This document shows, in pieces, positions 19,120 through 20,014 of a stretch of 64,000 nt of DNA. Source of the DNA: an uncultured Chroococcidiopsis sp. (GTDB lineage Bacteria > Cyanobacteriota > Cyanobacteriia > Cyanobacteriales > Chroococcidiopsidaceae); assembly GCA_964248365.1 (NCBI GenBank), contig CAXTYC010000014.1, positions 54,464 to 118,463 of the forward strand. The letters are read 5' to 3'. Under the pieces are notes generated by a model. It was not told the DNA's origin, made no database searches, and saw nothing but the letters and a program-made list of their open reading frames with translations. The translations under genes and the position numbers were made by a program. The stretch's first letter is position 1. Every line of letters begins with the position of its first letter.

Positions 19120-19192
19120 GGGGTTATAGCTCAGTTGGTAGAGCACTACAATGGCATTGTAGGGGTCAGCGGTTCGAATCCGCTTAGCTCCA
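19120..19192 (+). tRNA. tRNA-Ala (GGC)
   Basis: GGGGTTATAGCTCAGTTGGTAGAGC..., anticodon arm CTACA-atGGCat-TGTAG, T-arm GGTTCGAATCC, G3.U70 pair; CCA not encoded. Confidence 0.97.
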
Positions 19193-19223
19193 TAAAATAT
19201 TTATCTTTAGCTGGCGCGCTGTT

Positions 19224-19803
19224 TGTGACTTAACCCATAAAATTGCCGCTTTGGCATGGTTATCGTTCCATTTAAGCGTGGCAAACTTATGGTTCCAGTC
19301 CAAGCTCATGCCTAGCTTCGCGTAAAGCAGTTCGGACTTTCTTGGAGCAAAAGTATTCAGGTTTGGAGATTAGTTGTGAGACAAGAGCTTCAATTGGATA
19401 TTTGCCTTCGTTATGTAGTCTAAATACGATCTGTCGCACTTCAAGGCAGTATTGCTCTATTGTTTCTTGATGGTAATGTTTCTGATAAAAGAGAACAAGG
19501 TTCTTTAACTAGACAGGTAGCAAAACTACACAATAGACTCAATGAAGAAATAAAAAGGACGGATTCCCTAGAAATGCAACTGGCAGAACTGAATCGCATA
19601 CTGGCTGTTTTCTTAGGGCGGCTGAAGTAAAATAATAATATATACTCGTGGCAAGTTTATGGTTCTATTTTGTACTTGCGGCAAGCTTATGGTTCATTTC
19701 TATAGAATTCTTTTAACGAAGTCTGAACGAGAAAAGGAGCTTTTAAACTCATTTTTGGCAAAGTTATGGTTCCTGTAGCGGCAATCTTATCGGTAAAGTC
19801 ACA
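19224..19803. mobile_element. Non-autonomous (internally deleted) Tn7-like element at tRNA-Ala
   Basis: Ends TGTGACTTAACCCATAAAATTGCCG and (rev. comp.) TGTGACTTTACCGATAAGATTGCCG; 5-bp TSD CTGTT (19219-23 and 19804-08); seven GAACCATAAnnTTGCC-like repeats. Confidence 0.9.
19287..19500 (-). pseudogene. 3' remnant of a probable TniQ/TnsD target selector
   Basis: Reads ...IEQYCLEVRQIVFRLHNEGKYPIEALVSQLISKPEYFCSKKVRTALREARHELGLEP*, resembling C-termini of cyanobacterial TniQ/TnsD; the stop codon lies inside a TnsB-type site. Confidence 0.65.
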
Positions 19804-20014
19804 CTGTTAGCATTTAGCTGTTAGCCCAGCCGTGTAGCGAGATTTCTAGCTTCCCTTGTGTCTTTAATACTTATTAGTCAATTGTGTTGCTACTGGCGCT
19901 CTAGCTAATCGCGCGCCAGCTAACAGCGCGCCCGCTCTTTCTGAGGAAATAAATGCTTTGATCAACCCGAATATTCACAATAAGATCACAAAATAAGCGC
20001 GATCAAGATACCAA

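Follow-up and report, generated by a model that had tools for sequence, protein, structure and literature searches.

The window, a stretch of 64,000 nucleotides from an uncultured Chroococcidiopsis sp., carries a tRNA-Ala(GGC) gene at 19120-19192 on the forward strand (called with ARAGORN), the 3′ part of which is the attachment (homing) site of the short element described here. The element begins 31 bp past the 3′ end of the tRNA and spans 19224-19803 (580 bp), with a TGT at its start (19224-19226) and an ACA at its finish (19801-19803). Its termini form an inverted repeat of 27 nt that is 89% complementary, and on the forward strand it is flanked on the left (19219-19223) and on the right (19804-19808) by copies of CTGTT, a target-site duplication (TSD). 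The extent, the terminal repeats, the duplication and the distance from the tRNA had been proposed in the initial annotation and are confirmed here. The surrounding genes have housekeeping and signalling functions (hisF-like, ruvB, PAS histidine kinase), and none is a transposition gene.

Site comparison resolves the element into two ends, both read on the forward strand. In the left, tRNA-proximal end (19224-19297), three TnsAB sites of mixed orientation come after the TGT, the first reversed (19232-19247) and the other two forward (at 19253 and 19280), with a spacing of −9/+29/+56 that is common to most related ends among the matches listed. The right end (19650-19803) aligns with the far end of a complete relative (L212) and contains four sites of the same orientation, at 19650, 19680, 19757 and 19780, ahead of the ACA; their spacing of 30/77/23 is that of the loci L042 and L047. 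The total of seven sites, one reversed and six forward, matches the number first annotated, with positions agreeing to within 1-2 bp. When the 5.58-Mb genome was scanned with a site matrix trained on 295 sites from other loci, 31 matches exceeded the cut of 11 bits and formed two clusters only, both at the element. Six of the seven sites lie above this cut. The second left-end site (19253) falls below it and the terminal right-end site deviates at a matrix position that is 96% conserved, so the earlier description of the ends as intact needs qualifying at these two. In 2000 simulations under a dinucleotide model, at most three sites were obtained versus the seven observed, a weaker test because the site pattern was drawn from the element itself. 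The clustering of sites is not due to chance.

The matching pentamers carry little weight by themselves, because CTGTTAGC, an 8-mer, is present 400 times in the genome. The host repeat that flanks the element is rich in CTGTT, and the right flank, itself part of a dispersed repeat, has many homologs in the same genome, as would be expected if the duplication were a coincidence of this repeat and the boundaries had been produced by rearrangement rather than transposition. Against such an origin, the insertion split a dispersed host repeat unit, with its left half at 19207-19223 and its continuation from 19809; joining this left half to 19809-19811 restores an exact 20-bp junction, of which 13 exact copies exist elsewhere in the genome. 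Likewise, in one of four metagenome runs (X1), a contig joins 19218 to 19804 and omits exactly 585 bases, the element plus one TSD, with five letters at the joint that fit either side. The distance of 31 bp from the tRNA is also the mode of the family among the matches listed. A rearrangement is largely refuted as the source of the TSD, and we give it hardly any credence. The X1 contig, which supplies the empty site with a single CTGTT that had been suggested as a check, is the only one of its kind, with a depth of 3.1 and 85% likeness, and such joints may stem from other organisms or repeats; it favours a real TSD, short of proof. Support for the duplication therefore comes from the rebuilt repeat and the empty-site contig together.

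A second X1 contig, joining 19199 to 19807, was not counted, since it has other letters in between and the flank of another strain. Over 19252-19330, a further X1 contig has a related yet different left end, and at its loose end it encodes the C-terminus of another tnsD; judged by this contig, the sample contains a further element of the TnsAB family. At 19 tRNA-Ala loci from sister species (L002-L020), one of which ends at a contig edge, the flanks could not be aligned to the window. The host repeat around the element (19207-19223 and 19804-19936) is an abundant dispersed short-unit repeat with TTAGC-type arrays and GC-rich palindromic cores, found in many intergenic regions and also downstream of other tRNAs.

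No open reading frame had been reported to cover the element, and none of at least 80 aa does; the interior nevertheless consists of the remains of two genes. The first (19287-19486, reverse strand), recognized by tblastn and six-frame translation, is the 3′ stump of tnsD, comprising the last 66 codons and the natural stop. It corresponds to the C-terminal DNA-binding region, forms an open frame with no ATG and is 47% identical to residues 426-491 of the TnsD of L044 (tblastn, E 4e-18). The second (19487-19630, forward strand; tblastn) is the 3′ stump of a ribbon-helix-helix (RHH_1, PF01402) gene. Its last ~47 codons match residues 60-106 of homologs of ~106 aa at 43% (E 2e-11 to 5e-13), and the DNA-binding N-terminus is gone. 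Complete homologs of this protein occur in four of 300 other genomes, in each case adjoining the same end sites. The two stumps meet head to head at a deletion junction (19484-19490) with no visible filler DNA: the protein matches to tnsD and to RHH break off at one base, element base 264 (~19487), and the DNA alignments to L129, L114 and L212 switch at the same base. No stop interrupts either stump, which is compatible with a recent deletion and equally with selection. Elsewhere, a gene encoding an RHH_1 protein of ~106 aa with a coiled-coil-like part recurs immediately inside the right end (L055, L056, L057, L058, L212 and L085). By analogy, the RHH gene of TnsAB-family elements is a candidate regulator; RHH-type (Arc-type) repressors have been reported in type V-K CASTs (PMC9938897).

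The same ends border TnsAB and TnsC genes in L044, L114, L129 and L212, an association that the initial annotation had asked for. L212 is a complete element of 8,498 bp with the TSD CGTAC, located at tRNA-Lys(TTT), in which the order is left end, tnsD, tnsC, tnsAB, cargo, RHH gene and right end; a second TniQ was not found in it. Because the two genes left as stumps lie outermost in full-length relatives, L212 among them, collapse through one deletion is the simplest account of the interior. Decay at attachment sites is the rule: of the tRNA-adjacent ends among the matches listed, 40 come with 1.8 kb or more of interior sequence, and in these tnsD is intact in 17, broken in 15 and missing in eight. 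Other remains were also encountered. L040 (genome G027; at tRNA-Val(GAC)), L061 and L069 are 80-bp relics in which the left end is closed by an inverted site, and L042:6552-12674 (G201) is a decayed 6.1-kb element at tRNA-Ala(GGC) whose flanking 5-mers do not match; its interior contains MYXAN-type cas8/cas5 fragments (below the cut-off), one CRISPR repeat, a tniQ fragment and cargo.

The related ends, recovered by a pattern scan, come from at least 119 loci that yielded 122 oriented ends. A tRNA lies within 60 bp of 63 of the 122, and in 53 of these 63 the distance is 30-32 bp; tRNA-Ala(GGC) accounts for six of the 63, at offsets of 28-32 bp (both counts among the matches listed). The ends in L042, L002 and L179 likewise lie 28-32 bp past tRNA-Ala(GGC). 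At 39 of the at least 119 loci the flanks were only 300 bp long, so intron-bearing tRNAs may be missed in these counts, and calls of ‘Ser(aga)’ with an intron are probably tRNA-Leu(UAA). Downstream of the other 51 tRNA calls in the element's own genome there is no such end. In L114 and L129, both at tRNA-Ala(GGC), the same end is backed by an intact tnsD together with tnsC and the terminal part of tnsAB. The tnsD stump is 59%-61% identical to four TnsDs from tRNA-Ala sites and at most 53% to those from other tRNAs, among the matches listed; a fifth Ala-site TnsD (L100) reaches 67% over a shorter match. In a tree of 52 rows and 66 columns, which excluded three short matches (L100, L134 and L097), the stump groups with the four Ala-site TnsDs with a support of 94/91, just under the starred threshold. 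A second search brought up Ala-site TnsDs that are more distant from the stump (L179, 56%; L184, 40%; L190, no match), so closeness of TnsD is an imperfect predictor of the attachment site. The offset, the Ala-site loci, the affinity of the stump and the joined site bear out the proposal that tRNA-Ala(GGC) is the att site. As a separate observation, the elements L210 (G213), L186, L185 and L182 each have a tandem pair of long TnsD-like genes at a single tRNA site, which in L210 is tRNA-Ala(GGC).

On the strength of the ends, the TSD, the offset, the stumps and their junction, the Ala-site affinity of the tnsD stump and the architecture of parental elements, it is very likely that a full-length Tn7-like element at tRNA-Ala(GGC) collapsed by deletion into an inert 580-bp relic, and the following order of events would account for it. 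A parent with a fused TnsAB, TnsC and a TnsD recognizing tRNA-Ala(GGC) would have inserted 31 bp past the tRNA, duplicating CTGTT, with its left end facing the tRNA. As established for relatives, TnsD binds the 3′ part of the tRNA gene and loads TnsC, which recruits end-bound TnsAB, and the same steps presumably operated here. A later deletion, most simply a single one, would have spanned the interval from about codon −66 of tnsD to about codon 60 of the RHH gene, and would have taken tnsC and tnsAB along with the cargo and whatever second tniQ or cas genes were present. Since the searches turned up no close parent (61% protein identity at best), the junction is placed only to a few bases and several deletions are possible. 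The remainder would be an inert, single-copy relic, immobile on its own and with no helper in the assembly.

The genome of the host (5.58 Mb, 99.97% complete, 102 contigs) contains no second copy of the relic and no parent by blastn, motif, matrix, tblastn and family searches. No TnsAB, TnsC or TnsD was found in the 102 contigs by tblastn and family searches, and a search with PF08722 proves little, as it gave no match in this genome and none in any control genome either; with the assembly in 102 contigs, the sequence of a helper may be missing from it. Near a contig end (C19:1-2700; L059, L215) lies a broken tnsB/tniB/tniQ set that belongs to another Tn7-like type. It is 25%-28% like TnsAB, is accompanied by no cluster of relic-type sites and presumably resembles a type V-K CAST. 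In 400 other genomes, neither a full-length copy of the relic nor its junction was detected; 14 non-self matches were obtained, of which five (family f42) are short and internal and were treated as chance. In a plasmid collection, short matches resembling the ends came from 32 Bacillus records, and none of them spanned 80% or more of the query. The relic-type end motif extends far beyond cyanobacteria, to Bacillus plasmids (H1-H30), L072, L137 and loci of Acidobacteria and Chloroflexota, where, among the matches listed, it lies mostly away from tRNAs and in some cases near tniQ/tnsD-like genes.

These searches bear on whether the element is a working mini-transposon that could be mobilized, as first suggested. 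That suggestion is not supported, given the single copy, the failure to find a cognate transposase and the joining of the outermost genes by deletion; movement in trans is possible in principle. In a related scenario, the relic arrived ready-made as a member of a MITE-like family and was moved to tRNA-Ala as a mini by a TnsAB-TnsC-TnsD helper. Its ends and their spacing are near consensus, engineered minis of the family do move with proteins supplied in trans (PMC9881144), and short two-ended elements with perfect TSDs exist (L038, 613 bp; L219, 484 bp; L085, 708 bp; L113, 1260 bp). However, the relic is single copy in its genome, where no helper was found, its junction has no second copy in the 400 genomes or in the compared minis, each of which has a distinct interior, and the similarity of the stump to Ala-site TnsDs is what a parent resident at this site would have left. 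We regard arrival as a mini as distinctly unlikely. Collapse in place is the best reading because decay is common and the other short elements differ in their interior.

Among the short elements, two genomes from the host family yielded three minis with relic-type ends, all of which interrupt a DUF3268 zinc-finger gene and none of which is at a tRNA: L038:6785-7397 (G024, 613 bp), L243:1501-2671 (G024, 1171 bp) and L219:1070-1553 (G681, 484 bp). Each is gene-less or nearly so and has two to three CRISPR repeats and a 36-nt spacer that matches the element's own flank 47-52 bp outside the element, at 30/36, 27/36 and 26/36 positions, respectively. Across copies, the spacer-flank matches reach 31/36; other comparisons give 13-17. 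L038 and L219 occupy the same position with perfect but different TSDs, which suggests independent guide-directed insertions. Judged from their spacers, the three minis look like relics of natural guide-directed insertion and are candidates for natural mini-CASTs bearing their own guide. The repeat of these minis has no match in the relic's genome.

Perhaps the relic has instead been retained as a plug of the att site, either through end-based target immunity or through a TnsD C-terminal piece that competes for the tRNA. Target immunity is a property of Tn7 ends (PMC11406308), the stump corresponds roughly to the ~60-aa TnsD C-terminus reported to be essential for tRNA targeting (PMC11837452), and all seven sites have been kept. 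The part of PMC11406308 that treats immunity does not, however, show it for the TnsAB family. The stump also lacks an ATG, and the minus strand shows no promoter-like site (two sites in the region versus 2.3 expected). Among five tRNA-Ala loci of the same genus, four have no end and one (L002) retains a single left end, which is decayed and lies 32 bp past its tRNA-Ala(GGC). In other broken elements the remaining TnsD pieces start anywhere from residue 227 to 411 of 455, and because their lengths vary so widely there is no preferred stump boundary; preferential retention of the C-terminal piece was accordingly rejected. Retention as a plug is very unlikely, and collapse in place is preferred over it.

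The clade with a TnsAB fusion, a tRNA-targeting TnsD and a left end of mixed orientation was defined by Hsieh and Peters (PMC9881144) and includes the I-B2 PmcCAST and the I-D McCAST and CyCAST. For McCAST the offset is 29 ± 1 bp (PMC9881144) and for CyCAST 30-33 nt (PMC10293859); tRNA-Val, -Ala, -Leu and -Leu* are named as targets in the legend of Fig. 6 of PMC11837452, and the I-B2/I-D family is treated along with target immunity in PMC11406308. The relic shares with the cyanobacterial members of this family the TGT/ACA termini, the 5-bp TSD, the asymmetric multi-site ends and a left end that lies beside a tRNA at ~30 bp with tnsD ending there, and its initial placement in a tRNA-homing Tn7-like family of cyanobacteria stands. 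Unlike them, it has lost the transposition genes save for the 66-codon tnsD stump, has no cas genes or array and measures 580 bp as opposed to 8.5-19 kb. As fused TnsAB and TnsC are absent from the relic, and were not found in its genome, it is a derivative of the family and not an autonomous member. The proposed relation to I-B2/I-D CASTs holds at the level of the family; within the 580 bp there is no cas gene, CRISPR repeat, array or Cas-coopting TniQ. The nearest members are those at tRNA-Ala in Nostoc, Rivularia, Mojavia and Stigonema, which share the class of att site and, among the matches listed, have the TnsDs closest to the stump. In Table S1 of PMC9881144, the left end given for an element of Mojavia pulchra has the same start as relic-family ends, and L154, from Mojavia pulchra, is located at tRNA-Ala(GGC). 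The relic differs from these members in that its stump is ~40% diverged from their TnsDs and its stop codon lies at element base ~65, as against ~100 or ~247.

Two other classes resemble the relic in part. Type V-K CASTs also have TGT/ACA termini, a 5-bp TSD and cyanobacterial tRNA sites, but they home to the tRNA by a truncated guide and use TnsB without TnsA together with Cas12k, whereas the ends of the relic's relatives border tnsD-tnsC-tnsAB and the stump is a TnsD. Bacterial MITEs are non-autonomous deletion derivatives of transposons and, like the relic, are short and gene-less with terminal repeats and a TSD. MITEs occur in several copies at different sites; the relic is present in one copy in its own genome and in none at full length in 400 others, with no spread seen, and it has long asymmetric multi-site ends and a fixed att site. 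No publication on gene-less shells of this TnsAB-fusion family was found among those judged by title or the start of the abstract.

The relic is thus a well-preserved deletion derivative of a known family at an att-site class that has already been published. It documents cleanly, in a natural setting, the homing of TnsD to tRNA-Ala(GGC) in a host family of which 27 other genomes yielded no full TnsD at E 1e-40, and it supplies a natural minimal end pair (74 bp left, 154 bp right) of a family used in genome engineering. Shells of this kind are overlooked by surveys keyed on tns genes. That they make up a real non-autonomous class using helpers by both pathways, as att-site shells at tRNAs and as mini-CASTs of ~0.5 kb with their own guide, is rather unlikely; if true, shells moved in trans or blocking att sites would form a non-autonomous layer in CAST ecology.
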